Source: Candidatus Omnitrophota bacterium
Lineage (GTDB): Bacteria; Omnitrophota; Gorgyraeia; Zapsychrales; JANLHA01
Reading direction: 5' to 3'
Assembly (NCBI GenBank): GCA_963662715.1
Contig: OY759724.1
Coordinates: 1-32,000 of the forward strand
DNA: 32,000 nt
Shown: in pieces, positions 1-24,400 of the stretch
Layout: every line of letters begins with the position of its first letter
Numbering within the stretch: position 1 is the first letter of the stretch
Notes under the pieces: generated by a model
Database searches by the model: none
What the model was told of the DNA's origin: nothing
Seen by the model: only the letters and a program-made list of their open reading frames with translations
Translations under genes and position numbers: made by a program

Positions 1-3000
1 CATTCATACTCACCCAATTAATCCCCATATCACTCATCACATTTATGTCCTGCCAGTTGATTCCTGTATCTGATAGAACATCCAAATCCTGCCAGTTGAT
101 CCCCGCATCACTCAGGATATCCAGATCCTGCCAGTTAATTCCCGCGTTCGTCATATCACTCATACTCACCCAGTTCATCCCCATATCACTCATCACATCT
201 ATATCCAGCCAGTTGATCCCCGCATCACTCAAATCATTCACACTCACCCAATTGATTCCCATATCACTCATCACATTCAAATCCTGCCAGTTGATCCCTG
301 TATCACTCAATACATCCAAATCCTGCCAGTTGATCCCTGCGTCACTCATCACATCTATGTCCAGCCAATTGATCCCCGCATCACTTAAATCATTCACACT
401 CACCCAATTAATCCCCATATCACTCATCACATTTATGTCCTGCCAATTAACCCCCGCATCACTCAACACATCAATATCCGACCAGTTGATTCCCGCATCT
501 GATAGGACATCCAAATCCGACCAATTGATCCCTGTATCACTTAACACATCCAAATCCTGCCAGTTGATCCCCGCGTCCGAAAGAACATCGATATCCACCC
601 AGTTGATCCCCGCATTCGTCATATCACTCATACTCACCCAGTTCATCCCCATATCACTCATCACATCGATATCCACCCAGTTGATCCCCGCGTCACTTAA
701 ATCATTCACACTCACCCAATTAATCCCCGCGTCACTCATCACATTTATGTCCTGCCAGTTGATTCCCGTATCTGAGAGTACATCCAAGTCCACCCAGTTG
801 ATCCCCGCATCACTCATCACATCGATGTCCAGCCAGTTTATCCCCGCGTCACTTAAATCATTCACACTCACCCAATTGATACCCATATCACTCATCACAT
901 CGATATCCAGCCAGTTGATCCCTGTATCACTTAACACATTCAAATCCTGCCAGTTGATCCCCGCATCGCTCAGCACATCCAGGTCCAGCCAGTTGATTCC
1001 TGCGTCCGAAAGAACATCGATGTCCTGCCAGTTGATCCCCGCATCACTCAGCACATCTATATCCAGCCAGTTTATCCCCGCGTCACTCATATCATTCACA
1101 CTCACCCAATTAATTCCCATATCACTCATCACATTTATGTCCTGCCAGTTGATTCCTGTATCTGAGAGTACATCCAAATCCCGCCAATTAATCCCCGCAT
1201 CACTTAACACATCCAAATCCGACCAGTTGATCCCTGTATCACTTAACACATCCAAATCCTGCCAGTTGATCCCCGCGTCCGAAAGAACATCGATGTCCAG
1301 CCAGTTGATCCCCGCATTCGTCATATCACTCATACTCACCCAGTTCATCCCCATATCACTCATCACATCAATGTCCTGCCAGTTTATCCCCGCATCACTT
1401 AAATCATTCACACTCAACCAATTAATCCCCATATCACTCATCACATTCAAATCCTGCCAGTTGATCCCTGTATCACTCAATACATCAATGTCCAACCAGT
1501 TGATCCCCGTATCACTCATCACATCGATATCCAGCCAGTTGATTCCCGCATCACTTAAATCATTCACACTCACCCAATTGATACCCATATCACTCATCAC
1601 ATTTATATCCTGCCAATTGATTCCCGTATCTGAGAGCACATCCAAGTCCAGCCAGTTGATCCCTGTATCACTTAATACATCAATGTCCAGCCAGTTTATC
1701 CCCGTATCTGAAAGAACATCCAAATCCACCCAGTTGATCCCCGCATCACTCATCACATCAATGTCCAGCCAGTTTATCCCCGCGTCACTCATATCATTCA
1801 CACTCACCCAATTAATCCCCATATCACTCATCACATTTATGTCCTGCCAGTTGATCCCCGTATCGCTTAATACATCAATATCCGACCAGTTGATCCCTAT
1901 ATCACTCATCACATTTATGTCCTGCCAGTTGATTCCTGTATCTGATAGAACATCCAAATCCTGCCAGTTGATCCCCGCATCACTCATCACATCTATATCC
2001 AGCCAGTTTATCCCCGCGTCACTTAAATCATTCACACTCACCCAATTAATCCCCATATCACTCATCACATTTATGTCCTGCCAGTTGATCCCTGTGTCAC
2101 TTAATACATCCAGGTCCAGCCAGTTGATCCCCGCGTCACTTAATACATCCAGGTCCAGCCAGTTTATTCCCGCATTCGTCATATCACTCATACTCACCCA
2201 GTTCATCCCCGTATCACTCATCACATCAATATCCAGCCAGTTGATCCCCGCATCACTTAAATCATTCACACTCACCCAATTGATACCCATATCACTCATC
2301 ACATTCAAATCCTGCCAGTTGATCCCTATATCACTCAATACATCAATGTCCAGCCAATTAATTCCCGCATCACTCATCACATTTATATCCTGCCAGTTGA
2401 TCCCCGTATCTGAAAGGACATCCAGGTCCAGCCAATTAATTCCCGTATCACTCATCACATCTATATCCAGCCAGTTGATCCCCGCATCACTTAAATCATT
2501 CACACTCACCCAATTGATCCCCATATCACTCATCACATTTATATCCTGCCAGTTGATCCCTGTATCACTCAATACATCCAAATCCTGCCAGTTGATCCCC
2601 GCATCACTTAATACATCAATATCTGACCAGTTGATCCTCGCATCACTTAATACATCAATATCTGCCCAGTTGATCCCCGCATCACTCATCACATTGATAT
2701 CCAGCCAGTTGATCCCCGCGTCACTCATATCATTCACACTCACCCAGTTAATCCCCATATCGCTCATCACATTCAAATCCTGCCAGTTGATCCCTGTATC
2801 GCTCAATACATCCAAATCCTGCCAGTTGATCCCCGCGTCACTTAACACATCCAGATCCTGCCAGTTAATTCCCGCGTTCGTCATATCACTCATACTCACC
2901 CAGTTTATCCCCATATCACTCATCACATCTATATCCAGCCAGTTGATCCCCGCGTCACTCATATCATTCACACTCACCCAATTGATTCCCATATCACTCA

Positions 3001-3432
3001 TCACATTTATGTCCTGCCAGTTGATCCCCGTATCCGAGAGCACATCCATATCCTGCCAGTTAATTCCCGTATCACTCATCACATCTATATCCAACCAGTT
3101 GATCCCCGCATTCGTCATATCACTCATACTCACCCAGTTCATCCCCGCATCACTCATCACATCGATGTCCAGCCAGTTTATCCCCGCGTCACTTAAATCA
3201 TTCACACTCACCCAATTAATCCCCATATCACTCATCACATTCAAATCCTGCCAGTTGATCCCCGTATCACTTAATACATCAATATCTGCCCAGTTGATCC
3301 CCGTATCACTCATCACATCTATATCCAGCCAGTTGATCCCCGCGTTCGTCATATCACTCATACTCACCCAGTTCATCCCCGTATCACTCATCACATCTAT
3401 GTCCAGCCAGTTGATCCCCGCGTCACTTAAAT
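1..3432 (-). repeat. HOR copy H1 (A-type, 88 units). The phase of the copy boundary is arbitrary.
   Basis: Fully parsed into 88 x 39 nt units. Variants include a at 20, cct at 2636-2638, gct at 2762-2764, and t at 2906. Confidence 0.9.
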
Positions 3433-6400
3433 CATTCATACTCACCCAATTGATCCCCATATCACTCATCACATTTATGTCCTGCCAGTTGATTCCTGTA
3501 TCTGATAGAACATCCAAATCCTGCCAGTTGATCCCCGCATCACTCAGGATATCCAGATCCTGCCAGTTAATTCCCGCGTTCGTCATATCACTCATACTCA
3601 CCCAGTTCATCCCCATATCACTCATCACATCTATATCCAGCCAGTTGATCCCCGCATCACTCAAATCATTCACACTCACCCAATTGATTCCCATATCACT
3701 CATCACATTCAAATCCTGCCAGTTGATCCCTGTATCACTCAATACATCCAAATCCTGCCAGTTGATCCCTGCGTCACTCATCACATCTATGTCCAGCCAA
3801 TTGATCCCCGCATCACTTAAATCATTCACACTCACCCAATTAATCCCCATATCACTCATCACATTTATGTCCTGCCAATTAACCCCCGCATCACTCAACA
3901 CATCAATATCCGACCAGTTGATTCCCGCATCTGATAGGACATCCAAATCCGACCAATTGATCCCTGTATCACTTAACACATCCAAATCCTGCCAGTTGAT
4001 CCCCGCGTCCGAAAGAACATCGATATCCACCCAGTTGATCCCCGCATTCGTCATATCACTCATACTCACCCAGTTCATCCCCATATCACTCATCACATCG
4101 ATATCCAGCCAGTTGATCCCCGCGTCACTTAAATCATTCACACTCACCCAATTAATCCCCGCGTCACTCATCACATTTATGTCCTGCCAGTTGATTCCCG
4201 TATCTGAGAGTACATCCAAGTCCACCCAGTTGATCCCCGCATCACTCATCACATCGATGTCCAGCCAGTTTATCCCCGCGTCACTTAAATCATTCACACT
4301 CACCCAATTGATACCCATATCACTCATCACATCGATATCCAGCCAGTTGATCCCTGTATCACTTAACACATTCAAATCCTGCCAGTTGATCCCCGCATCG
4401 CTCAGCACATCCAGGTCCAGCCAGTTGATTCCTGCGTCCGAAAGAACATCGATGTCCTGCCAGTTGATCCCCGCATCACTCAGCACATCTATATCCAGCC
4501 AGTTTATCCCCGCGTCACTCATATCATTCACACTCACCCAATTAATTCCCATATCACTCATCACATTTATGTCCTGCCAGTTGATTCCTGTATCTGAGAG
4601 TACATCCAAATCCCGCCAATTAATCCCCGCATCACTTAACACATCCAAATCCGACCAGTTGATCCCTGTATCACTTAACACATCCAAATCCTGCCAGTTG
4701 ATCCCCGCGTCCGAAAGAACATCGATGTCCAGCCAGTTGATCCCCGCATTCGTCATATCACTCATACTCACCCAGTTCATCCCCATATCACTCATCACAT
4801 CAATGTCCTGCCAGTTTATCCCCGCATCACTTAAATCATTCACACTCAACCAATTAATCCCCATATCACTCATCACATTCAAATCCTGCCAGTTGATCCC
4901 TGTATCACTCAATACATCAATGTCCAACCAGTTGATCCCCGTATCACTCATCACATCGATATCCAGCCAGTTGATTCCCGCATCACTTAAATCATTCACA
5001 CTCACCCAATTGATACCCATATCACTCATCACATTTATATCCTGCCAATTGATTCCCGTATCTGAGAGCACATCCAAGTCCAGCCAGTTGATCCCTGTAT
5101 CACTTAATACATCAATGTCCAGCCAGTTTATCCCCGTATCTGAAAGAACATCCAAATCCACCCAGTTGATCCCCGCATCACTCATCACATCAATGTCCAG
5201 CCAGTTTATCCCCGCGTCACTCATATCATTCACACTCACCCAATTAATCCCCATATCACTCATCACATTTATGTCCTGCCAGTTGATCCCCGTATCGCTT
5301 AATACATCAATATCCGACCAGTTGATCCCTATATCACTCATCACATTTATGTCCTGCCAGTTGATTCCTGTATCTGATAGAACATCCAAATCCTGCCAGT
5401 TGATCCCCGCATCACTCATCACATCTATATCCAGCCAGTTTATCCCCGCGTCACTTAAATCATTCACACTCACCCAATTAATCCCCATATCACTCATCAC
5501 ATTTATGTCCTGCCAGTTGATCCCTGTGTCACTTAATACATCCAGGTCCAGCCAGTTGATCCCCGCGTCACTTAATACATCCAGGTCCAGCCAGTTTATT
5601 CCCGCATTCGTCATATCACTCATACTCACCCAGTTCATCCCCGTATCACTCATCACATCAATATCCAGCCAGTTGATCCCCGCATCACTTAAATCATTCA
5701 CACTCACCCAATTGATACCCATATCACTCATCACATTCAAATCCTGCCAGTTGATCCCTATATCACTCAATACATCAATGTCCAGCCAATTAATTCCCGC
5801 ATCACTCATCACATTTATATCCTGCCAGTTGATCCCCGTATCTGAAAGGACATCCAGGTCCAGCCAATTAATTCCCGTATCACTCATCACATCTATATCC
5901 AGCCAGTTGATCCCCGCATCACTTAAATCATTCACACTCACCCAATTGATCCCCATATCACTCATCACATTTATATCCTGCCAGTTGATCCCTGTATCAC
6001 TCAATACATCCAAATCCTGCCAGTTGATCCCCGCATCACTTAATACATCAATATCTGACCAGTTGATCCCCGCATCACTTAATACATCAATATCTGCCCA
6101 GTTGATCCCCGCATCACTCATCACATTGATATCCAGCCAGTTGATCCCCGCGTCACTCATATCATTCACACTCACCCAGTTAATCCCCATATCACTCATC
6201 ACATTCAAATCCTGCCAGTTGATCCCTGTATCGCTCAATACATCCAAATCCTGCCAGTTGATCCCCGCGTCACTTAACACATCCAGATCCTGCCAGTTAA
6301 TTCCCGCGTTCGTCATATCACTCATACTCACCCAGTTCATCCCCATATCACTCATCACATCTATATCCAGCCAGTTGATCCCAGCGTCACTCATATCATT

Positions 6401-9400
6401 CACACTCACCCAATTGATTCCCATATCACTCATCACATTTATGTCCTGCCAGTTGATCCCCGTATCCGAGAGCACATCTATATCCAGCCAGTTAATTCCC
6501 GTATCACTCATCACATCTATATCCAACCAGTTGATCCCCGCATTCGTCATATCACTCATACTCACCCAGTTCATCCCCGCATCACTCATCACATCGATGT
6601 CCAGCCAGTTTATCCCCGCGTCACTTAAATCATTCACACTCACCCAATTAATCCCCATATCACTCATCACATTCAAATCCTGCCAGTTGATCCCCGTATC
6701 ACTTAATACATCAATATCTGCCCAGTTGATCCCCGTATCACTCATCACATCTATATCCAGCCAGTTGATCCCCGCGTTCGTCATATCACTCATACTCACC
6801 CAGTTCATCCCCGTATCACTCATCACATCTATGTCCAGCCAGTTGATCCCCGCGTCACTTAAATCATTCATACTTACCCAATTGATCCCCATATCACTCA
6901 TCACATTTATGTCCTGCCAGTTGATTCCTGTATCTGATAGAACATCCAAATCCTGCCAGTTGATCCCCGCATCACTCAGGATATCCAGATCCTGCCAGTT
7001 AATTCCCGCGTTCGTCATATCACTCATACTCACCCAGTTCATCCCCATATCACTCATCACATCTATATCCAGCCAGTTGATCCCCGCATCACTCAAATCA
7101 TTCACACTCACCCAATTGATTCCCATATCACTCATCACATTCAAATCCTGCCAGTTGATCCCTGTATCACTCAATACATCCAAATCCTGCCAGTTGATCC
7201 CTGCGTCACTCATCACATCTATGTCCAGCCAATTGATCCCCGCATCACTTAAATCATTCACACTCACCCAATTAATCCCCATATCACTCATCACATTTAT
7301 GTCCTGCCAATTAACCCCCGCATCACTCAACACATCAATATCCGACCAGTTGATTCCCGCATCTGATAGGACATCCAAATCCGACCAATTGATCCCTGTA
7401 TCACTTAACACATCCAAATCCTGCCAGTTGATCCCCGCGTCCGAAAGAACATCGATATCCACCCAGTTGATCCCCGCATTCGTCATATCACTCATACTCA
7501 CCCAGTTCATCCCCATATCACTCATCACATCGATATCCACCCAGTTGATCCCCGCGTCACTTAAATCATTCACACTCACCCAATTAATCCCCGCGTCACT
7601 CATCACATTTATGTCCTGCCAGTTGATTCCCGTATCTGAGAGTACATCCAAGTCCACCCAGTTGATCCCCGCATCACTCATCACATCGATGTCCAGCCAG
7701 TTTATCCCCGCGTCACTTAAATCATTCACACTCACCCAATTGATACCCATATCACTCATCACATCGATATCCAGCCAGTTGATCCCTGTATCACTTAACA
7801 CATTCAAATCCTGCCAGTTGATCCCCGCATCGCTCAGCACATCCAGGTCCAGCCAGTTGATTCCTGCGTCCGAAAGAACATCGATGTCCTGCCAGTTGAT
7901 CCCCGCATCACTCAGCACATCTATATCCAGCCAGTTTATCCCCGCGTCACTCATATCATTCACACTCACCCAATTAATTCCCATATCACTCATCACATTT
8001 ATGTCCTGCCAGTTGATTCCTGTATCTGAGAGTACATCCAAATCCCGCCAATTAATCCCCGCATCACTTAACACATCCAAATCCGACCAGTTGATCCCTG
8101 TATCACTTAACACATCCAAATCCTGCCAGTTGATCCCCGCGTCCGAAAGAACATCGATGTCCAGCCAGTTGATCCCCGCATTCGTCATATCACTCATACT
8201 CACCCAGTTCATCCCCATATCACTCATCACATCAATGTCCTGCCAGTTTATCCCCGCATCACTTAAATCATTCACACTCAACCAATTAATCCCCATATCA
8301 CTCATCACATTCAAATCCTGCCAGTTGATCCCTGTATCACTCAATACATCAATGTCCAACCAGTTGATCCCCGTATCACTCATCACATCGATATCCAGCC
8401 AGTTGATTCCCGCATCACTTAAATCATTCACACTCACCCAATTGATACCCATATCACTCATCACATTTATATCCTGCCAATTGATTCCCGTATCTGAGAG
8501 CACATCCAAGTCCAGCCAGTTGATCCCTGTATCACTTAATACATCAATGTCCAGCCAGTTTATCCCCGTATCTGAAAGAACATCCAAATCCACCCAGTTG
8601 ATCCCCGCATCACTCATCACATCAATGTCCAGCCAGTTTATCCCCGCGTCACTCATATCATTCACACTCACCCAATTAATCCCCATATCACTCATCACAT
8701 TTATGTCCTGCCAGTTGATCCCCGTATCGCTTAATACATCAATATCCGACCAGTTGATCCCTATATCACTCATCACATTTATGTCCTGCCAGTTGATTCC
8801 TGTATCTGATAGAACATCCAAATCCTGCCAGTTGATCCCCGCATCACTCATCACATCTATATCCAGCCAGTTTATCCCCGCGTCACTTAAATCATTCACA
8901 CTCACCCAATTAATCCCCATATCACTCATCACATTTATGTCCTGCCAGTTGATCCCTGTGTCACTTAATACATCCAGGTCCAGCCAGTTGATCCCCGCGT
9001 CACTTAATACATCCAGGTCCAGCCAGTTTATTCCCGCATTCGTCATATCACTCATACTCACCCAGTTCATCCCCGTATCACTCATCACATCAATATCCAG
9101 CCAGTTGATCCCCGCATCACTTAAATCATTCACACTCACCCAATTGATACCCATATCACTCATCACATTCAAATCCTGCCAGTTGATCCCTATATCACTC
9201 AATACATCAATGTCCAGCCAATTAATTCCCGCATCACTCATCACATTTATATCCTGCCAGTTGATCCCCGTATCTGAAAGGACATCCAGGTCCAGCCAAT
9301 TAATTCCCGTATCACTCATCACATCTATATCCAGCCAGTTGATCCCCGCATCACTTAAATCATTCACACTCACCCAATTGATCCCCATATCACTCATCAC

Positions 9401-12400
9401 ATTTATATCCTGCCAGTTGATCCCTGTATCACTCAATACATCCAAATCCTGCCAGTTGATCCCCGCATCACTTAATACATCAATATCTGACCAGTTGATC
9501 CTCGCATCACTTAATACATCAATATCTGCCCAGTTGATCCCCGCATCACTCATCACATTGATATCCAGCCAGTTGATCCCCGCGTCACTCATATCATTCA
9601 CACTCACCCAGTTAATCCCCATATCGCTCATCACATTCAAATCCTGCCAGTTGATCCCTGTATCGCTCAATACATCCAAATCCTGCCAGTTGATCCCCGC
9701 GTCACTTAACACATCCAGATCCTGCCAGTTAATTCCCGCGTTCGTCATATCACTCATACTCACCCAGTTTATCCCCATATCACTCATCACATCTATATCC
9801 AGCCAGTTGATCCCCGCGTCACTCATATCATTCACACTCACCCAATTGATTCCCATATCACTCATCACATTTATGTCCTGCCAGTTGATCCCCGTATCCG
9901 AGAGCACATCCATATCCTGCCAGTTAATTCCCGTATCACTCATCACATCTATATCCAACCAGTTGATCCCCGCATTCGTCATATCACTCATACTCACCCA
10001 GTTCATCCCCGCATCACTCATCACATCGATGTCCAGCCAGTTTATCCCCGCGTCACTTAAATCATTCACACTCACCCAATTAATCCCCATATCACTCATC
10101 ACATTCAAATCCTGCCAGTTGATCCCCGTATCACTTAATACATCAATATCTGCCCAGTTGATCCCCGTATCACTCATCACATCTATATCCAGCCAGTTGA
10201 TCCCCGCGTTCGTCATATCACTCATACTCACCCAGTTCATCCCCGTATCACTCATCACATCTATGTCCAGCCAGTTGATCCCCGCGTCACTTAAATCATT
10301 CATACTCACCCAATTGATCCCCATATCACTCATCACATTTATGTCCTGCCAGTTGATTCCTGTATCTGATAGAACATCCAAATCCTGCCAGTTGATCCCC
10401 GCATCACTCAGGATATCCAGATCCTGCCAGTTAATTCCCGCGTTCGTCATATCACTCATACTCACCCAGTTCATCCCCATATCACTCATCACATCTATAT
10501 CCAGCCAGTTGATCCCCGCATCACTCAAATCATTCACACTCACCCAATTGATTCCCATATCACTCATCACATTCAAATCCTGCCAGTTGATCCCTGTATC
10601 ACTCAATACATCCAAATCCTGCCAGTTGATCCCTGCGTCACTCATCACATCTATGTCCAGCCAATTGATCCCCGCATCACTTAAATCATTCACACTCACC
10701 CAATTAATCCCCATATCACTCATCACATTTATGTCCTGCCAATTAACCCCCGCATCACTCAACACATCAATATCCGACCAGTTGATTCCCGCATCTGATA
10801 GGACATCCAAATCCGACCAATTGATCCCTGTATCACTTAACACATCCAAATCCTGCCAGTTGATCCCCGCGTCCGAAAGAACATCGATATCCACCCAGTT
10901 GATCCCCGCATTCGTCATATCACTCATACTCACCCAGTTCATCCCCATATCACTCATCACATCGATATCCACCCAGTTGATCCCCGCGTCACTTAAATCA
11001 TTCACACTCACCCAATTAATCCCCGCGTCACTCATCACATTTATGTCCTGCCAGTTGATTCCCGTATCTGAGAGTACATCCAAGTCCACCCAGTTGATCC
11101 CCGCATCACTCATCACATCGATGTCCAGCCAGTTTATCCCCGCGTCACTTAAATCATTCACACTCACCCAATTGATACCCATATCACTCATCACATCGAT
11201 ATCCAGCCAGTTGATCCCTGTATCACTTAACACATTCAAATCCTGCCAGTTGATCCCCGCATCGCTCAGCACATCCAGGTCCAGCCAGTTGATTCCTGCG
11301 TCCGAAAGAACATCGATGTCCTGCCAGTTGATCCCCGCATCACTCAGCACATCTATATCCAGCCAGTTTATCCCCGCGTCACTCATATCATTCACACTCA
11401 CCCAATTAATTCCCATATCACTCATCACATTTATGTCCTGCCAGTTGATTCCTGTATCTGAGAGTACATCCAAATCCCGCCAATTAATCCCCGCATCACT
11501 TAACACATCCAAATCCGACCAGTTGATCCCTGTATCACTTAACACATCCAAATCCTGCCAGTTGATCCCCGCGTCCGAAAGAACATCGATGTCCAGCCAG
11601 TTGATCCCCGCATTCGTCATATCACTCATACTCACCCAGTTCATCCCCATATCACTCATCACATCAATGTCCTGCCAGTTTATCCCCGCATCACTTAAAT
11701 CATTCACACTCAACCAATTAATCCCCATATCACTCATCACATTCAAATCCTGCCAGTTGATCCCTGTATCACTCAATACATCAATGTCCAACCAGTTGAT
11801 CCCCGTATCACTCATCACATCGATATCCAGCCAGTTGATTCCCGCATCACTTAAATCATTCACACTCACCCAATTGATACCCATATCACTCATCACATTT
11901 ATATCCTGCCAATTGATTCCCGTATCTGAGAGCACATCCAAGTCCAGCCAGTTGATCCCTGTATCACTTAATACATCAATGTCCAGCCAGTTTATCCCCG
12001 TATCTGAAAGAACATCCAAATCCACCCAGTTGATCCCCGCATCACTCATCACATCAATGTCCAGCCAGTTTATCCCCGCGTCACTCATATCATTCACACT
12101 CACCCAATTAATCCCCATATCACTCATCACATTTATGTCCTGCCAGTTGATCCCCGTATCGCTTAATACATCAATATCCGACCAGTTGATCCCTATATCA
12201 CTCATCACATTTATGTCCTGCCAGTTGATTCCTGTATCTGATAGAACATCCAAATCCTGCCAGTTGATCCCCGCATCACTCATCACATCTATATCCAGCC
12301 AGTTTATCCCCGCGTCACTTAAATCATTCACACTCACCCAATTAATCCCCATATCACTCATCACATTTATGTCCTGCCAGTTGATCCCTGTGTCACTTAA

Positions 12401-15400
12401 TACATCCAGGTCCAGCCAGTTGATCCCCGCGTCACTTAATACATCCAGGTCCAGCCAGTTTATTCCCGCATTCGTCATATCACTCATACTCACCCAGTTC
12501 ATCCCCGTATCACTCATCACATCAATATCCAGCCAGTTGATCCCCGCATCACTTAAATCATTCACACTCACCCAATTGATACCCATATCACTCATCACAT
12601 TCAAATCCTGCCAGTTGATCCCTATATCACTCAATACATCAATGTCCAGCCAATTAATTCCCGCATCACTCATCACATTTATATCCTGCCAGTTGATCCC
12701 CGTATCTGAAAGGACATCCAGGTCCAGCCAATTAATTCCCGTATCACTCATCACATCTATATCCAGCCAGTTGATCCCCGCATCACTTAAATCATTCACA
12801 CTCACCCAATTGATCCCCATATCACTCATCACATTTATATCCTGCCAGTTGATCCCTGTATCACTCAATACATCCAAATCCTGCCAGTTGATCCCCGCAT
12901 CACTTAATACATCAATATCTGACCAGTTGATCCTCGCATCACTTAATACATCAATATCTGCCCAGTTGATCCCCGCATCACTCATCACATTGATATCCAG
13001 CCAGTTGATCCCCGCGTCACTCATATCATTCACACTCACCCAGTTAATCCCCATATCGCTCATCACATTCAAATCCTGCCAGTTGATCCCTGTATCGCTC
13101 AATACATCCAAATCCTGCCAGTTGATCCCCGCGTCACTTAACACATCCAGATCCTGCCAGTTAATTCCCGCGTTCGTCATATCACTCATACTCACCCAGT
13201 TCATCCCCATATCACTCATCACATCTATATCCAGCCAGTTGATCCCAGCGTCACTCATATCATTCACACTCACCCAATTGATTCCCATATCACTCATCAC
13301 ATTTATGTCCTGCCAGTTGATCCCCGTATCCGAGAGCACATCCATATCCTGCCAGTTAATTCCCGTATCACTCATCACATCTATATCCAACCAGTTGATC
13401 CCCGCATTCGTCATATCACTCATACTCACCCAGTTCATCCCCGCATCACTCATCACATCGATGTCCAGCCAGTTTATCCCCGCGTCACTTAAATCATTCA
13501 CACTCACCCAATTAATCCCCATATCACTCATCACATTCAAATCCTGCCAGTTGATCCCCGTATCACTTAATACATCAATATCTGCCCAGTTGATCCCCGT
13601 ATCACTCATCACATCTATATCCAGCCAGTTGATCCCCGCGTTCGTCATATCACTCATACTCACCCAGTTCATCCCCGTATCACTCATCACATCTATGTCC
13701 AGCCAGTTGATCCCCGCGTCACTTAAATCATTCATACTCACCCAATTGATCCCCATATCACTCATCACATTTATGTCCTGCCAGTTGATTCCTGTATCTG
13801 ATAGAACATCCAAATCCTGCCAGTTGATCCCCGCATCACTCAGGATATCCAGATCCTGCCAGTTAATTCCCGCGTTCGTCATATCACTCATACTCACCCA
13901 GTTCATCCCCATATCACTCATCACATCTATATCCAGCCAGTTGATCCCCGCATCACTCAAATCATTCACACTCACCCAATTGATTCCCATATCACTCATC
14001 ACATTCAAATCCTGCCAGTTGATCCCTGTATCACTCAATACATCCAAATCCTGCCAGTTGATCCCTGCGTCACTCATCACATCTATGTCCAGCCAATTGA
14101 TCCCCGCATCACTTAAATCATTCACACTCACCCAATTAATCCCCATATCACTCATCACATTTATGTCCTGCCAATTAACCCCCGCATCACTCAACACATC
14201 AATATCCGACCAGTTGATTCCCGCATCTGATAGGACATCCAAATCCGACCAATTGATCCCTGTATCACTTAACACATCCAAATCCTGCCAGTTGATCCCC
14301 GCGTCCGAAAGAACATCGATATCCACCCAGTTGATCCCCGCATTCGTCATATCACTCATACTCACCCAGTTCATCCCCATATCACTCATCACATCGATAT
14401 CCACCCAGTTGATCCCCGCGTCACTTAAATCATTCACACTCACCCAATTAATCCCCGCGTCACTCATCACATTTATGTCCTGCCAGTTGATTCCCGTATC
14501 TGAGAGTACATCCAAGTCCACCCAGTTGATCCCCGCATCACTCATCACATCGATGTCCAGCCAGTTTATCCCCGCGTCACTTAAATCATTCACACTCACC
14601 CAATTGATACCCATATCACTCATCACATCGATATCCAGCCAGTTGATCCCTGTATCACTTAACACATTCAAATCCTGCCAGTTGATCCCCGCATCGCTCA
14701 GCACATCCAGGTCCAGCCAGTTGATTCCTGCGTCCGAAAGAACATCGATGTCCTGCCAGTTGATCCCCGCATCACTCAGCACATCTATATCCAGCCAGTT
14801 TATCCCCGCGTCACTCATATCATTCACACTCACCCAATTAATTCCCATATCACTCATCACATTTATGTCCTGCCAGTTGATTCCTGTATCTGAGAGTACA
14901 TCCAAATCCCGCCAATTAATCCCCGCATCACTTAACACATCCAAATCCGACCAGTTGATCCCTGTATCACTTAACACATCCAAATCCTGCCAGTTGATCC
15001 CCGCGTCCGAAAGAACATCGATGTCCAGCCAGTTGATCCCCGCATTCGTCATATCACTCATACTCACCCAGTTCATCCCCATATCACTCATCACATCAAT
15101 GTCCTGCCAGTTTATCCCCGCATCACTTAAATCATTCACACTCAACCAATTAATCCCCATATCACTCATCACATTCAAATCCTGCCAGTTGATCCCTGTA
15201 TCACTCAATACATCAATGTCCAACCAGTTGATCCCCGTATCACTCATCACATCGATATCCAGCCAGTTGATTCCCGCATCACTTAAATCATTCACACTCA
15301 CCCAATTGATACCCATATCACTCATCACATTTATATCCTGCCAATTGATTCCCGTATCTGAGAGCACATCCAAGTCCAGCCAGTTGATCCCTGTATCACT

Positions 15401-18400
15401 TAATACATCAATGTCCAGCCAGTTTATCCCCGTATCTGAAAGAACATCCAAATCCACCCAGTTGATCCCCGCATCACTCATCACATCAATGTCCAGCCAG
15501 TTTATCCCCGCGTCACTCATATCATTCACACTCACCCAATTAATCCCCATATCACTCATCACATTTATGTCCTGCCAGTTGATCCCCGTATCGCTTAATA
15601 CATCAATATCCGACCAGTTGATCCCTATATCACTCATCACATTTATGTCCTGCCAGTTGATTCCTGTATCTGATAGAACATCCAAATCCTGCCAGTTGAT
15701 CCCCGCATCACTCATCACATCTATATCCAGCCAGTTTATCCCCGCGTCACTTAAATCATTCACACTCACCCAATTAATCCCCATATCACTCATCACATTT
15801 ATGTCCTGCCAGTTGATCCCTGTGTCACTTAATACATCCAGGTCCAGCCAGTTGATCCCCGCGTCACTTAATACATCCAGGTCCAGCCAGTTTATTCCCG
15901 CATTCGTCATATCACTCATACTCACCCAGTTCATCCCCGTATCACTCATCACATCAATATCCAGCCAGTTGATCCCCGCATCACTTAAATCATTCACACT
16001 CACCCAATTGATACCCATATCACTCATCACATTCAAATCCTGCCAGTTGATCCCTATATCACTCAATACATCAATGTCCAGCCAATTAATTCCCGCATCA
16101 CTCATCACATTTATATCCTGCCAGTTGATCCCCGTATCTGAAAGGACATCCAGGTCCAGCCAATTAATTCCCGTATCACTCATCACATCTATATCCAGCC
16201 AGTTGATCCCCGCATCACTTAAATCATTCACACTCACCCAATTGATCCCCATATCACTCATCACATTTATATCCTGCCAGTTGATCCCTGTATCACTCAA
16301 TACATCCAAATCCTGCCAGTTGATCCCCGCATCACTTAATACATCAATATCTGACCAGTTGATCCCCGCATCACTTAATACATCAATATCTGCCCAGTTG
16401 ATCCCCGCATCACTCATCACATTGATATCCAGCCAGTTGATCCCCGCGTCACTCATATCATTCACACTCACCCAGTTAATCCCCATATCACTCATCACAT
16501 TCAAATCCTGCCAGTTGATCCCTGTATCGCTCAATACATCCAAATCCTGCCAGTTGATCCCCGCGTCACTTAACACATCCAGATCCTGCCAGTTAATTCC
16601 CGCGTTCGTCATATCACTCATACTCACCCAGTTCATCCCCATATCACTCATCACATCTATATCCAGCCAGTTGATCCCAGCGTCACTCATATCATTCACA
16701 CTCACCCAATTGATTCCCATATCACTCATCACATTTATGTCCTGCCAGTTGATCCCCGTATCCGAGAGCACATCCATATCCTGCCAGTTAATTCCCGTAT
16801 CACTCATCACATCTATATCCAGCCAGTTGATCCCCGCATTCGTCATATCACTCATACTCACCCAGTTCATCCCCGCATCACTCATCACATCGATGTCCAG
16901 CCAGTTTATCCCCGCGTCACTTAAATCATTCACACTCACCCAATTAATCCCCATATCACTCATCACATTCAAATCCTGCCAGTTGATCCCCGTATCACTT
17001 AATACATCAATATCTGCCCAGTTGATCCCCGTATCACTCATCACATCTATATCCAGCCAGTTGATCCCCGCGTTCGTCATATCACTCATACTCACCCAGT
17101 TCATCCCCGTATCACTCATCACATCTATGTCCAGCCAGTTGATCCCCGCGTCACTTAAATCATTCATACTTACCCAATTGATCCCCATATCACTCATCAC
17201 ATTTATGTCCTGCCAGTTGATTCCTGTATCTGATAGAACATCCAAATCCTGCCAGTTGATCCCCGCATCACTCAGGATATCCAGATCCTGCCAGTTAATT
17301 CCCGCGTTCGTCATATCACTCATACTCACCCAGTTCATCCCCATATCACTCATCACATCTATATCCAGCCAGTTGATCCCCGCATCACTCAAATCATTCA
17401 CACTCACCCAATTGATTCCCATATCACTCATCACATTCAAATCCTGCCAGTTGATCCCTGTATCACTCAATACATCCAAATCCTGCCAGTTGATCCCTGC
17501 GTCACTCATCACATCTATGTCCAGCCAATTGATCCCCGCATCACTTAAATCATTCACACTCACCCAATTAATCCCCATATCACTCATCACATTTATGTCC
17601 TGCCAATTAACCCCCGCATCACTCAACACATCAATATCCGACCAGTTGATTCCCGCATCTGATAGGACATCCAAATCCGACCAATTGATCCCTGTATCAC
17701 TTAACACATCCAAATCCTGCCAGTTGATCCCCGCGTCCGAAAGAACATCGATATCCACCCAGTTGATCCCCGCATTCGTCATATCACTCATACTCACCCA
17801 GTTCATCCCCATATCACTCATCACATCGATATCCAGCCAGTTGATCCCCGCGTCACTTAAATCATTCACACTCACCCAATTAATCCCCGCGTCACTCATC
17901 ACATTTATGTCCTGCCAGTTGATTCCCGTATCTGAGAGTACATCCAAGTCCACCCAGTTGATCCCCGCATCACTCATCACATCGATATCCAGCCAGTTTA
18001 TCCCCGCGTCACTTAAATCATTCACACTCACCCAATTGATACCCATATCACTCATCACATCGATATCCAGCCAGTTGATCCCTGTATCACTTAACACATT
18101 CAAATCCTGCCAGTTGATCCCCGCATCGCTCAGCACATCCAGGTCCAGCCAGTTGATTCCCGTATCTGATAGAACATCCAAATCCTGCCAGTTGATCCCC
18201 GCATCACTCAGCACATCTATATCCAGCCAGTTTATCCCCGCGTCACTCATATCATTCACACTCACCCAATTAATTCCCATATCACTCATCACATTTATGT
18301 CCTGCCAGTTGATTCCTGTATCTGAGAGTACATCCAAATCCCGCCAATTAATCCCCGCATCACTTAACACATCCAAATCCGACCAGTTGATCCCTGTATC

Positions 18401-21400
18401 ACTTAACACATCCAAATCCTGCCAGTTGATCCCCGCGTCCGAAAGAACATCGATGTCCAGCCAGTTGATCCCCGCATTCGTCATATCACTCATACTCACC
18501 CAGTTCATCCCCATATCACTCATCACATCAATGTCCTGCCAGTTTATCCCCGCATCACTTAAATCATTCACACTCAACCAATTAATCCCCATATCACTCA
18601 TCACATTCAAATCCTGCCAGTTGATCCCTGTATCACTCAATACATCAATGTCCAACCAGTTGATCCCCGTATCACTCATCACATCGATATCCAGCCAGTT
18701 GATTCCCGCATCACTTAAATCATTCACACTCACCCAATTGATACCCATATCACTCATCACATTTATATCCTGCCAATTGATTCCCGTATCTGAGAGCACA
18801 TCCAAGTCCAGCCAGTTGATCCCTGTATCACTTAATACATCAATGTCCAGCCAGTTTATCCCCGTATCTGAAAGAACATCCAAATCCACCCAGTTGATCC
18901 CCGCGTCACTCATCACATCAATGTCCAGCCAGTTGATCCCCGCATCGCTCAAATCATTCACGCTCACCCAATTAATCCCCGCGTCACTCATCACATTCAA
19001 ATCCTGCCAGTTGATCCCCGTATCACTTAACACATCCATATCCGACCAGTTTATCCCCGCATCACTCAGGATATTCAAGTCCAACCAGTTAATTCCCGTA
19101 TCTGATAGCACATCCAAATCCTGCCAGTTGATCCCCGCATCACTCATCACATCTATGTCCAACCAGTTGATCCCCGCGTCACTCATATCATTCACACTCA
19201 CCCAATTGATCCCCATATCACTCATCACATTTATGTCCTGCCAGTTGATCCCCGTATCACTTAACACATCCATATCCGACCAGTTTATCCCCGCATCACT
19301 CAGGATATCCAAGTCCAGCCAGTTGATTCCCGCGTTCGTCATATCACTCATACTCACCCAGTTCATCCCCGTATCACTCATCACATCAATATCCAGCCAG
19401 TTGATCCCCGCGTCACTTAAATCATTCACACTCACCCAATTGATACCCATATCACTCATCACATTCAAATCCTGCCAGTTTATCCCTATATCACTCAATA
19501 CATCAATGTCCAGCCAATTAATTCCCGCATCACTCATCACATTTATATCCTGCCAGTTGATCCCCGTATCACTCATCACATCCAGATCGAGCCAATTAAT
19601 TCCCGTATCACTCATCACATCTATATCCAGCCAGTTGATCCCCGCATCACTTAAATCATTCACACTCACCCAATTGATCCCCATATCACTCATCACATTT
19701 ATATCCTGCCAGTTGATCCCTGTATCACTCAATACATCCAAATCCTGCCAGTTGATCCCCGTATCCGATAGCACATCTAAATCCTGCCAGTTGATCCCCG
19801 CATCACTTAATACATCTATGTCCAGCCAGTTGATCCCCGCATCACTCATCACATCGATGTCCAGCCAGTTTATCCCCGCGTCACTCATATCATTCACACT
19901 CACCCAGTTAATCCCCATATCGCTCATCACATTCAAATCCTGCCAGTTGATCCCTGTATCGCTCAATACATCCAAATCCTGCCAGTTAATCCCCGTATCC
20001 GAGAGCACATCCAGATCCAGCCAGTTGATTCCCGCATTCGTCATATCACTCATACTCACCCAGTTCATCCCCATATCACTCATCACATCTATGTCCAGCC
20101 AGTTGATCCCCGCGTCACTCATATCATTCACACTCACCCAGTTAATCCCCATGTCACTCATCACATTTATATCCTGCCAGTTGATCCCCGTATCCGAGAG
20201 CACATCCATATCCTGCCAGTTGATCCCCGCATCGCTCAGGATATCCAAGTCCAGCCAGTTGATCCCCGCGTTCGTCATATCACTCATACTCACCCAGTTC
20301 ATCCCGATATCACTCATCACATCGATATCCAGCCAGTTGATCCCCGCGTCACTCATATCATTCACACTCACCCAGTTAATCCCCATGTCACTCATCACAT
20401 TTATATCCTGCCAGTTGATCCCCGTATCCGAGAGCACATCTAAATCCTGCCAGTTGATCCCCGCATCGCTCAGGATATCCAAATCCAGCCAATTGATCCC
20501 CGCATTCGTCATATCACTCATACTCACCCAGTTCATCCCCGCATCACTCATCACATCGATATCCTGCCAGTTAATCCCCGCATCACTTAAATCATTCACG
20601 CTCACCCAGTTAATACCCATGTCACTCATAACATTTATGTCCTGCCAGTTGATCCCCGTATCCGATAGCACATCTAAATCCTGCCAGTTGATCCCCGCAT
20701 CACTCAGGATATCCAAGTCCAGCCAGTTAATTCCCGCGTTCGTCATATCACTCATACTTACCCAGTTCATCCCCGTATCACTCATCACATCGATATCCAG
20801 CCAGTTAATCCCCGCGTCACTTAAATCATTCACACTCACCCAATTGATCCCCATATCACTCATCACATTCAAATCCTGCCAGTTGATCCCCGTATCCGAG
20901 AGCACATCCAGATCCTGCCAGTTGATCCCCGCATCGCTCATCACATCGATGTCCAGCCAGTTGATCCCCGCGTCACTTAAATCATTCACACTCACCCAAT
21001 TGATCCCTATATCACTCATCACATTTATGTCCTGCCAATTAACCCCCGCATCACTTAACACATCAATATCCGACCAGTTGATCCCCGCATCTGATAGGAC
21101 ATCCAAATCCGACCAATTGATCCCTGTATCTGAAATAACATCAATGTCCGACCAGTTGATCCCCGCGTCCGAAAGAACATCGATATCCAGCCAGTTGATC
21201 CCCGCGTTCGTCATATCACTCATACTCACCCAGTTCATCCCCATATCACTCATCACATCGATATCCACCCAGTTGATCCCCGCATCACTTAAATCATTCA
21301 CACTCACCCAATTGATCCCCGCGTCACTCATCACATTTATGTCCTGCCAGTTGATCCCTGTATCACTCAATACATCCATATCCTGCCAGTTAATCCCCGC

Positions 21401-24400
21401 ATCACTCATCACATCGATATCCAGCCAGTTGATCCCCGCATCACTTAAATCATTCACACTCACCCAGTTAATCCCCATGTCACTCATAACATTTATGTCC
21501 TGCCAGTTGATCCCTGTATCACTTAACACATCCAGGTCCACCCAATTGATCCCCGCATCGCTCAGCACATCCAAATCCAGCCAGTTGATTCCCGTATCTG
21601 ATAGAACATCCAAATCCTGCCAGTTGATCCCCGCATCACTCATCACATCGATGTCCAACCAATTGATCCCCGCGTCACTCATATCATTCACACTCACCCA
21701 ATTGATCCCCATGTCACTCATCACATTTATGTCCTGCCAGTTGATTCCTGTATCTGAAAGCACATCCAAATCCCGCCAATTAATCCCCGCATCACTTAAC
21801 ACATTCAAATCCGACCAGTTGATTCCTGTATCACTTAACACATCCAAATCCTGCCAGTTGATCCCCGCGTCCGAAAGAACATCGATGTCCAGCCAGTTGA
21901 TCCCCGCATTCGTCATATCACTCATACTCACCCAGTTCATCCCCATATCACTCATCACATCAATGTCCTGCCAGTTGATCCCCGCATCACTTAAATCATT
22001 CACACTCACCCAATTAATCCCCATATCACTCATCACATTCAAATCCTGCCAATTTATCCCCGTATCTGAGAGTACATCCAAGTCCACCCAGTTAATTCCC
22101 GCATCTGAAAGGACATCAATGTCCAGCCAGTTGATTCCCGCATCACTTAAATCATTCACACTCACCCAATTGATCCCCATATCACTCATCACATTCAAAT
22201 CCTGCCAATTTATCCCCGTATCTGAGAGTACATCCAAGTCCAGCCAGTTGATCCCTGTATCACTTAATACATCAATGTCCAGCCAGTTGATCCCCGTATC
22301 ACTTAACACATCGATGTCCAGCCAGTTTATCCCCGCGTCACTCATCACATCAATGTCCAGCCAGTTGATCCCCGCATCGCTCAAATCATTCACGCTCACC
22401 CAATTAATTCCCATATCACTCATCACATTTATGTCCTGCCAGTTAATTCCTGTATCTGATAGAACATCCAAATCCTGCCAGTTAATCCCCGCATCACTCA
22501 GGATATTCAAGTCCAGCCAGTTAATTCCCGTATCTGAGAGCACATCCAAATCCTGCCAGTTGATCCCCGCGTCACTCATCACATCTATGTCCAACCAGTT
22601 GATCCCCGCGTCACTCATATCATTCACATTCACCCAATTGATCCCCATATCACTCATCACATTCAAATCCTGCCAGTTGATCCCCGTATCACTTAACACA
22701 TCCATATCCGACCAGTTTATCCCCGCATCACTCAGGATATCCAAGTCCAGCCAGTTGATTCCCGCGTTCGTCATATCACTCATACTCACCCAGTTCATCC
22801 CCGTATCACTCATCACATCAATATCCAGCCAGTTGATCCCCGCGTCACTTAAATCATTCACACTCACCCAATTGATCCCCATATCACTCATCACATTCAA
22901 ATCCTGCCAATTGATCCCCGTATCGCTTAATACATCCACATCCTGCCAATTTATCCCCGCATCACTCAGGATATCCAAGTCCAGCCAGTTGATCCCCGTA
23001 TCACTCAACACATCCAGATCCAGCCAGTTGATCCCCGCGTCACTCATCACATCTATATCCAGCCAATTGATCCCCGCGTCACTTAAATCATTCACACTCA
23101 CCCAATTGATCCCCATGTCACTCATCACATTTATGTCCTGCCAATTAACCCCCGTATCACTTAACACATTCAAATCCTGCCAGTTGATCCCTGCATCACT
23201 TAATACATCAATATCTGCCCAGTTGATCCCCGCATCACTTAATACATCTATGTCCAGCCAGTTGATCCCCGCATCACTCATCACATCGATGTCCAGCCAG
23301 TTTATCCCCGCGTCACTCATATCATTCACACTCACCCAGTTAATCCCCATGTCACTCATCACATTCAAATCCTGCCAGTTAATCCCCGTATCCGATAGCA
23401 CATCCAAATCTAACCAATTAATCCCCGTATCACTTAAGACATCAATATCCAGCCAGTTGATTCCCGCATTCGTCATATCACTCATACTCACCCAGTTCAT
23501 CCCCATATCACTCATCACATCTATGTCCAGCCAGTTGATCCCCGCGTCACTCATATCATTCACACTCACCCAGTTAATCCCCATGTCACTCATCACATTT
23601 ATATCCTGCCAGTTGATCCCCGTATCCGAGAGCACATCCATATCCTGCCAGTTGATCCCCGCATCGCTCAGGATATCCAAGTCCAGCCAGTTGATCCCCG
23701 CGTTCGTCATATCACTCATACTCACCCAGTTCATCCCGATATCACTCATCACATCGATATCCAGCCAGTTGATCCCCGCGTCACTTAAATCACTCACACT
23801 CACCCAATTAATCCCCATATCACTCATCACATTTATGTCCTGCCAGTTGATCCCCGTATCCGAGAGCACATCCATATCCTGCCAGTTGATCCCCGCATCA
23901 CTCAGGATATCCAAATCCAGCCAATTGATCCCCGCATTCGTCATATCACTCATACTCACCCAGTTCATCCCCGCATCACTCATCACATCTATATCCAGCC
24001 AGTTAATCCCCGCATCACTTAAATCATTCACGCTCACCCAGTTAATACCCATGTCACTCATAACATTTATGTCCTGCCAGTTGATCCCCGTATCCGATAG
24101 CACATCTAAATCCTGCCAGTTGATCCCCGCATCACTCAGGATATCCAAGTCCAGCCAGTTAATTCCCGCGTTCGTCATATCACTCATACTCACCCAGTTC
24201 ATCCCCGTATCACTCATCACATCGATATCCAGCCAGTTGATCCCCGCGTCACTTAAATCATTCACACTCACCCAATTGATCCCCATATCACTCATCACAT
24301 TCAAATCCTGCCAGTTGATCCCCGTATCCGAGAGCACATCCAGATCCTGCCAGTTGATCCCCGCATCGCTCATCACATCGATGTCCAGCCAGTTGATCCC

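Follow-up and report, generated by a model that had tools for sequence, protein, structure and literature searches.

How does one stretch of bacterial DNA come to carry repeat periods nested inside one another at four levels? The question is raised by the first 32,000 nucleotides of contig OY759724.1 from a Candidatus Omnitrophota bacterium (positions 1 to 32,000, the whole stretch analysed, hereafter called the window). An earlier reading of the letters alone, which we refer to as the original prediction, had described positions 1-3432 as periodic at 39, 78, about 234, and 3432 bp, the longest period being an 88-unit higher-order repeat (HOR). We find that the window lies inside a giant minus-strand gene, where an undescribed repeat of 13 amino acids is present in more than 820 copies. 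The nested periods probably arose by stepwise, homology-limited unequal exchange or gene conversion within this coding array, which is under selection and belongs to a new protein family.

A single in-frame array fills the window

The whole window (1-32000, minus strand) is a continuous in-frame array of 39-bp (13-codon) units, with 820 complete units counted from position 14 and a partial unit at each end. Tandem Repeats Finder (TRF) also reported one single array over 1-32000. Positions 1-3432 are therefore no feature of their own; they are copy 1 of a repeat that runs through all 32,000 bases. In the minus frame, tryptophan codons are spaced by 13 codons in 820 of 820 intervals, with zero indels over 32 kb. 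Two frames are free of stop codons, minus frame 1 and plus frame 2. The minus-strand open reading frame (ORF) is open at both ends of the window, which holds no complete ORF, and its product is at least 10,666 aa long.

This product is made of 13-residue units with a G-I-N-W end, in which Asn12 and Trp13 are invariant across the window. Its residues are limited to D, N, I, S, V, L, W, G, M, A, T, and Q, plus 12 arginines, and its 2024 aspartates give it a net charge of about -2000. Every window unit has an Asp at position 2 or 5; a transmembrane (TM) segment is therefore impossible in the window's 10,666 aa. On the plus strand, C makes up 35% of the window and G 11% (GC skew -0.53), and the coding strand is thus very G-rich and C-poor.

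The minus strand encodes a peptide kept by purifying selection

Because minus frame 1 and plus frame 2 share their wobble position, codon-position bias alone is unable to tell the two open frames apart. Nei-Gojobori comparisons of HOR copies put the ratio of nonsynonymous to synonymous substitution rates (dN/dS) at 0.10-0.15 for the minus frame, where dS reaches 0.48 between HOR subfamilies, and at 0.32-0.42 for plus frame 2, about three times the minus-frame value. Ser7 is encoded by both the AGY and the TCN codon families, and Leu6 by all six leucine codons. The homologs that we found in protein databases and genomes all match the minus-frame product, and none matches the plus frame. Taken together, the dN/dS values, the serine and leucine codon use, and the homologs establish that the minus frame is coding and that its peptide is kept by purifying selection.

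Two other accounts of the open frames have to be weighed against this one. Plus frame 2 might be the actual gene, or a second, overlapping gene, as it contains 0 stops over 10,666 codons and would give a product rich in Ser, Ile, Leu, Thr, Gln, and Pro. However, with the wobble position shared, the codons used in the minus frame suffice to keep it open, and both its threefold higher dN/dS and the homologs argue against it. We consider a plus-strand gene extremely improbable; the plus-strand ORF looks like a by-product of minus-frame codon content. Scarcely more probable, in our judgement, is that the array is satellite-like DNA that encodes nothing, or that long reads were collapsed or expanded during assembly, the open frame being incidental. 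The architecture does resemble that of a satellite HOR, two frames are stop-free, and an exact 30-mer that occurs once per HOR copy was unmatched in genome and metagenome contig collections. Against this, the array runs for 32 kb without an indel, combines a dN/dS of 0.10-0.15 with dS up to 0.48, and retains serine through both codon families. Moreover, protein homologs with signal peptides and conserved termini are found in many genomes, and relatives carry arrays of 300-400 units in independent assemblies.

Periods of 2, 6, and 88 units are nested within the array

We measured sequence identity as a function of lag. Mean identity is 0.693-0.704 at every odd unit lag and 0.70-0.84 at even unit lags, reaching 0.823 at 6 units (234 bp) and 0.980 at 88 units (3432 bp); at lags other than multiples of 39 bp it is at most 0.35. 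We confined a permutation test to one HOR copy, since the nine copies together would inflate significance. In this single copy, lag 6 stood far above the permuted order (z = +8.9 and +10.7), as did lag 12 (z about +10), and odd lags were depleted (z = -2.7 to -4.3). Among the short periods, that of 6 units thus dominates. All four nested levels of the original prediction were recovered: the tryptophan spacing of 13 codons, the odd/even contrast at 78 bp, and the peaks at 234 bp (0.82) and 3432 bp (0.98). The near-identity at lag 88 identifies 88 units as the HOR.

Variant units keep one parity and delimit modules

Two variant unit classes, called B and C, had been said to sit only at odd unit indices of the first HOR copy. 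This holds across all 820 units, with B units at odd indices in 140 of 140 cases and C units in 65 of 65. Within one HOR, the probability that 22 independently placed B and C units would share one parity is P = 1.4e-8. Average-linkage clustering of the 180 distinct DNA units, which used no motif, placed B and C in one cluster (205/205 odd), with a parity purity of 0.93-0.96. The index list given earlier for the first copy (3C, 5, 9, 15C, and on to 87) and the series of B spacings (4, 8, 4, 6, 8, 4, then nine 6s) were exactly reproduced. Odd-index units are either B or C (205) or of the type xDLDVLSDTGINW (205; Leu6 in 200 and Thr9 in 174). Even-index units have the consensus xD[IL][DN]V[ML]SD[AM]G[IM]NW and, as proposed, are mainly of VMSD[MA]G types, with Met6 in 294 of 410. 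The odd/even alternation is still present when the B and C units are set aside.

The unit on the N-terminal side of B was also described correctly in its general form, x-D-[IL]-[DN]-VMSD[MA]GINW, which fits nine of the first nine cases and 135 of 139 across the window; the narrower form QD[IL]NVMSDMGINW occurs in seven of those nine, not six. Read in the direction of the protein, a module opens with a B unit (VSVND[LM]SDAGINW), continues with LDIDVMSDxG[IM]NW and an optional C unit plus fillers, and closes with QD[IL]NVMSDMGINW. Each HOR contains 15 modules, of 6, 4, 8, 4, 6, 8, and 4 units followed by eight of 6, and the six-unit modules are 79-91% identical to one another. Module 7 (1574-1807, minus strand) is an example of the 6-unit type (234 bp, 78 aa), with a B unit, LDIDVMSDAGINW, three fillers, and the closing unit QDINVMSDMGINW in protein order. 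Equivalently, the array can be read as a string of 26-aa dimers, in each of which an odd-type unit (B, C, or T-type) is paired with the even-type (M-type) unit that comes next in the protein. One such dimer lies at 170-247 on the minus strand and comprises the B unit VSVNDLSDAGINW (209-247, odd index 5) and then, in the protein, the even-type unit LDIDVMSDMGMNW (170-208). As sequence periods, the proposed 2-unit (26-aa) super-unit and dominant 6-unit (78-aa) block are therefore upheld by the parity contrast and the lag-6 peak.

Neighboring units are also coupled. All 63 units that end in GMNW (Met11) are followed in the protein by the C unit VSMSDMTNAGINW, as where the unit at 170-208 leads into the C unit at 131-169 (minus strand, odd index 3); conversely, 63 of the 65 C units are preceded by a GMNW-ending unit. 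This coupling could reflect either block inheritance or physical contact between neighbors. At index 68 of the first HOR copy (about 2666-2704), the unit ADIDVLSDARINW has Arg in place of Gly10, a position that is Gly in 88% of units family-wide. Three HOR copies, this one included, carry the substitution, which may be a marker of copy ancestry or a tolerated defect.

HOR copies fall into two subfamilies with a mosaic between them

The first 88-unit, 3432-bp HOR copy, H1, spans 1-3432 on the minus strand (14-3445 in the unit register). It opens subfamily 1 (copies 1-5; 1-17160, minus strand), whose members differ by only 2-8 bases per 3432 bp in a pairwise matrix; these five copies are a recent amplification. 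Copies 7-10 (three full, one partial; 20593-32000, minus strand) form subfamily 2, which is about 10% diverged from subfamily 1 and whose members have 27-106 mutual differences, in patches. Copy 6 (17161-20592, minus strand) is a mosaic: roughly its first 1.7 kb are subfamily-1-like, the rest is diverged with patches near subfamily 2, and its class string is altered. Because the subfamilies and the mosaic copy differ in divergence, the lag-88 identity of 0.98 is a mean over unequal copies. Identity thus rises with each level, from about 70% between units through that of the six-unit modules to 90-99.9% between HOR copies.

The repeat defines a rare family at a conserved locus

Searches of Pfam, NCBIfam, and PDB sequences with the repeat gave nothing credible. 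An Ntox33 match (Pfam, 83 bits, E = 1.5e-23, window 14-3445) is a sum of weak repeat matches in which one short stretch passes alone, and we regard it as spurious; MAGI_u1, Dmc1, and other weak repeat-summed matches were dismissed as spurious too. The phage collection yielded no tblastn match. Two papers on Omnitrophota giant genes make no mention of this repeat, and a literature motif search brought up nothing relevant (its single 'ginw' match was a URL string). A large protein database returned 14 matches, mostly labelled Candidatus Omnitrophota, of which the best (P0001) has E = 2e-179 and 57% identity. A scan of GTDB genomes found 16 loci, many at contig ends, with at most 76% identity (L003, over 311 aa). 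Among 1.84 billion representative proteins, a profile search matched 157 at E <= 1e-10, of which 33 had E <= 1e-30; short fragments are numerous among these matches, and the two longest strong ones have 2809 and 2304 aa. The family is therefore rare.

We name it here the 'INW 13-mer' family, after its consensus xD[IL]xx[LM][ST]xxG[IV]NW, which the window array fits. A logo built from 2346 unique units of the 16 loci reads x1, D2 (81%), [IL]3, x4, x5, [LM]6, [ST]7, x8, [AST]9, G10 (88%), [IV]11, N12 (100%), W13 (100%). All family arrays are acidic, with -1.3 to -2.7 charges per unit, and in relatives they range from about 20 to more than 400 units, several reaching 300 to more than 400. The relatives have a signal peptide, a LamG domain (Pfam; in some members, followed by further unassigned sequence), and tandem Ig-like domains. 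A few KTDTINW transition units then lead into the 13-mer array, which has a conserved end. Beyond it lies a helical C-terminal region with T[LV]FG motifs, for which PDB offered no relative, and the proteins finish in the invariant tail VVVKTWFE(S)GE.

The gene order around the INW gene is secretin, TPR, two FGE-sulfatase-like genes, the INW gene, a gene of unknown function (435-470 aa), an F-type ATPase operon, and type II secretion system (T2SS) genes E/F/G. The same neighborhood surrounds short (868 and 1292 aa) and giant INW forms, which are therefore orthologs that differ mainly in repeat number. B-like units (TSINDMSDAGINW) are kept in distant orthologs. Around the arrays of L001, L002, L004, L009, and L010 the TPR protein is PilW/Tgl-like, and the FGE-sulfatase-like pair lies directly upstream in L001 and L010. 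The gene directly downstream of the INW gene has no NCBIfam match, and the F-type ATPase operon is wedged in ahead of the T2SS E/F/G genes. In L010, near position 19,600, the array changes frame (ORF 5255-19627, then an open frame from 19597 onward), which is either a genuine frameshift or an assembly error in repeats.

Parity and periods vary among relatives

To compare arrays we defined a B-like unit uniformly, as acidic at position 5 and non-acidic at position 2. The ratio of even to odd spacings between such units is 203:0 in the window. It also favors even spacings in L003 (19:3), L007 (46:10), L010 (46:12), P0068 (12:3), and L005 (11:4), and it leans toward odd ones in L004 (20:27), L012 (21:35), and P0002 (1:6). 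The odd spacings of L003 (3, 5, and 7) are confined to the N-terminal edge of its array. A strict parity rule for the whole family is refuted by the odd spacings in relatives; parity is instead a tendency that recurs in one part of the family, and the fold does not demand it. The perfect parity of the window was largely inherited through the amplification of blocks of even length.

The 2-unit contrast and the lag-6 peak are present in the far more diverged arrays L003, L007, L010, and L013, and these two levels are therefore older than the HOR. L016, L017, L005, and L015 have neither a 2-unit nor a 6-unit signal. HORs of other lengths occur in L008 (25 units, identity 0.77, over a whole 3.7-kb contig), L016 (28/56/84 units), the second array of L010 (32 units), and L011 (12 units). 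HOR formation is thus general among INW arrays, with a lineage-specific period.

Two kinds of relative organize their units in other ways. In L012 (2-17077, a 5692-aa relative), modules are bounded by irregular 11-residue units, usually with a B-like unit next, a boundary device unlike that of the window. The distant matches P0011 and P0013 have another N-terminus, and in them a 13-aa unit, TTIDELVLDGINW, strictly alternates with a 10-12-aa unit (ADYENVAINW); here the same INW motif underlies an overt repeat of two units.

Structural models suggest one short helix per unit

We modeled 24 window units with AlphaFold2 (AF2), using 21 aligned repeat runs, and obtained a predicted local distance difference test score (pLDDT) of 43. 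In a model of the full-length ortholog P0004, made with 15 orthologs, N-terminal beta-sandwiches reached pLDDT 75-90 and the repeats 35-50. A Foldseek search of PDB with the P0004 model found counterparts for its N-terminal Ig-like domains alone, among the Ig-like domains of adhesins, invasins, and S-layer proteins. In both AF2 models, DSSP assigned one helix of 8-10 residues per unit, from about Trp13 to residue 8, with a loop at xG[IV]N (pLDDT 35-50; predicted template modeling score [pTM] 0.19-0.28). An alpha-solenoid of stacked, antiparallel helix pairs was considered on the basis of these low-confidence helices and the Foldseek result. By helix-capping rules, the conserved positions would fit a capped short helix: D, N, or S at position 2 would be the N-cap and Gly10 would be C', and the hydrophobic residues at 6 and 11 would be those of a Schellman motif.

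From these models and the conserved positions we infer that each unit may be a capped short helix and two units a hairpin. If this is right, loops of 4-5 residues would make neighboring helices antiparallel, and the 26-aa hairpin would be the translational repeat. The earlier proposal that 26 aa is a structural repeat and 78 aa a domain-like module is partly supported, in that one helix per unit, predicted at low confidence, would make a helix-loop-helix pair plausible. It is not established beyond that, given the low pLDDT and a parity bias that is mixed among relatives. Hairpins of alpha-solenoids rise by about 1 nm each, and if that value applied here, the window alone would span about 0.4 micrometre.

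The nested periods probably reflect homology-limited exchange

If exchange between repeat copies depends on identity, the supply of perfect matches should set the registers at which it occurs. Perfect matches of 25 bp or more cover 0.2-1.3% of the array at odd unit lags and 2.5-10% at even lags other than multiples of 6. Their coverage rises to 15-24% when the lag is a multiple of 6 (to a maximum of 30 units) and to 91% when it is 88 units; it is 0 at lags off the 39-bp multiples (1-400 bp tested). Such register dependence would channel identity-dependent exchange into the observed hierarchy and leave the frame unbroken. The mosaic structure of the HOR copies also supports exchange or conversion.

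We propose that the periods were built up in steps. A 13-codon unit would have arisen and then differentiated into two alternating types, with B, C, or VLSDTG units as the odd and VMSD units as the even member of each pair. Modules would have been assembled from two to four such pairs, mostly three (78 aa), with a B unit opening and QD[IL]NVMSDMGINW closing each module. Finally, a block of 15 modules (88 units) would have been amplified at least nine times, five of the copies very recently. Because perfect identity is needed, exchange would be steered to 88-unit, 6n-unit, and even registers, with odd registers nearly barred and out-of-frame registers fully barred. Such steering would preserve both frame and parity and make the hierarchy self-reinforcing, and purifying selection keeps the peptide constant throughout.

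Several points weigh against this account. Unequal exchange is inferred from the pattern of the repeats. The window holds the array only; the ends of the gene, its total length, and read-level support for the assembly lie beyond it. Lags of 2, 4, and 8 units lie at the permuted mean and are not enriched over a random order of the same units, so that the 78-bp level is an odd/even contrast with no lag-2 peak, and the dimer is a weaker level than the 6-unit block. Both structural models are of low confidence in the repeats, and because the modules are related by duplication, selection for an even number of units is inseparable from inheritance.

A competing explanation is that the periods are mainly structural, such that an obligatory 26-aa hairpin has non-equivalent A and B helices, three hairpins form a B-bounded 78-aa folding or superhelical module, and selection acts against odd numbers of units. 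AF2 gives one helix per unit in two different sequences, whose short loops would force antiparallel packing, and the conserved positions (D/N/S2, Gly10, hydrophobic 6 and 11) agree with helix capping. Even spacings make up about 80% in L007, L010, P0068, and L003, where identity between units is down to about 60%, B-like units persist in distant orthologs, and Met11 is coupled to the following C unit without exception. An obligatory hairpin is nevertheless hard to reconcile with the odd spacings and adjacent B-like units that are common in L004, L012, and P0002, with the spacings of 3, 5, and 7 at the edge of L003, with the 25-unit HOR of L008, and with the four arrays that have no 2- or 6-unit signal. 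Furthermore, block inheritance can account for the neighbor couplings, and AF2 confidence is too low to show hairpin packing or a break at B units. We therefore hold a mainly structural origin to be doubtful, though hairpins may contribute to the periods. Stepwise exchange limited by homology, within a coding array under selection, is the explanation we think probable.

A secreted acidic stalk is the likely role

The product is best explained as a secreted, extremely acidic repeat protein whose locus, as seen in the relatives, would lie beside a secretin and T2SS- or type IV pilus (T4P)-like genes in Omnitrophota-type genomes. Its architecture, synteny, and range of unit number suggest that the array likely gives a secreted or surface protein, associated with a T2SS/T4P-like machine, an acidic, metal-dependent stalk or tether whose length can vary. 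We think it rather unlikely that the family is a new class of fibrous protein, in which a Ca/Mg-stabilized solenoid of 13-residue capped helices would have real 26- and 78-aa periods and act as a length-tunable stalk or tether (tens of nm to more than 0.4 micrometre) at a T2SS/T4P-like envelope machine, its length rapidly reset by HOR recombination. More speculatively, the 6-unit period might match the helical repeat of a pilus-like partner filament, in the manner of a nebulin-type ruler.

Whatever its fold, the array reveals a conserved, unannotated repeat family whose copy number varies at least about 40-fold between orthologs at a secretion-system locus, in a phylum thought to be predators or episymbionts. 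Because such arrays break short-read assemblies, INW genes are missing from protein catalogues. The hierarchy also supplies natural constructs of 1, 2, 6, and 88 units, with which the parts played by fold and by recombination history are directly testable.

Comparison with known repeat systems

Giant genes are already known from Omnitrophota. The Archaeovorin and Dockerin types (West-Roberts et al. 2023) are multi-domain proteins with many TM helices and SecA, HEAT, TPR, dockerin, or TSP3 domains. The INW gene resembles them in the phylum-level source of its homologs, in the T2SS-like genes near its relatives, in its great length, and in being probably extracellular; it differs in that the window is a single monotonous, Pfam-dark repeat without TM potential. 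The many TM helices and the SecA DEAD, HEAT, TPR, and enzyme domains of the Archaeovorin type are absent from the window's 10,666 aa, in which no Pfam domain was found. Although the unit by eye fits part of an EF-hand loop, profiles of dockerin (PF00404), EF-hand, and TSP3 (PF18884) gave no match even at E <= 10. Nielsen & Lui (2026), whose giants include a tandem-repeat scaffold class, report that strict nucleotide tandems never make up more than 10% of a long coding sequence, and they conclude against recent expansion for most of their genes. The window, with five 3.4-kb copies only 2-8 bases apart, is a counter-example to the generalization that long Omnitrophota genes lack recent tandem expansion.

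Ice-nucleation proteins of the InaZ/InaQ type offer a parallel in their periods, with an 8-residue consensus and periods of 16 and 48 residues (PMC3445048); a second source (PMC9418140) presents their repeats, about 65 in number, as a modeled beta-solenoid. Like the INW proteins, they are bacterial surface proteins with a long central tandem array, and their nested periods stand in the same 1:2:6 ratio as 13, 26, and 78 in the window. The window array nevertheless has no sequence similarity to them and no Pfam match, is predicted to be helical, exceeds 820 repeats, and has the extra 88-unit HOR level. Membership among ice-nucleation repeats (AGYGSTLT-type octapeptides, 16-residue repeats) was rejected, as the window unit is 13 aa long with an unrelated consensus and matches no Pfam or NCBIfam family. 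An RTX beta-roll (GGxGxDxUx nonapeptide, HemolysinCabind) was rejected as well, the period being 13 rather than 9 and no profile matching.

In overall plan, the closest likenesses are to repeat adhesins and to nebulin. Giant RTX adhesins such as MpIBP and LapA, and SiiE, have a binding head, a tandem stalk of near-identical extender domains that vary in number, and an anchoring end, and their Ig-like units are about 100 aa long; nebulin has single-helix, 35-aa actin-binding modules grouped into super-repeats. The INW proteins share this head-stalk-anchor logic with variable repeat number, and nebulin adds the hierarchy of module and super-repeat, but neither has any homology to the window array. 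To our knowledge, nothing comparable to a 13-aa helix-turn unit has been described.

The closest likeness in DNA architecture is to the alpha-satellite HORs of primate centromeres, where diverged head-to-tail monomers of two alternating types form near-identical HORs, with subfamilies and mosaics, by unequal crossing-over and conversion. The window has the same features, from monomers that are about 70% identical and of two alternating types to HOR copies at 90-99.9% identity, subfamilies, and a mosaic copy. Diverged monomers in near-identical head-to-tail blocks are what define a satellite-type HOR; the non-coding character that goes with them does not apply here. The window array is bacterial, coding, and strictly in frame, with dN/dS of about 0.1 and a monomer of 39 bp rather than 171 bp. 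It would thus present satellite-style HOR evolution at work inside a bacterial coding gene under strong purifying selection.

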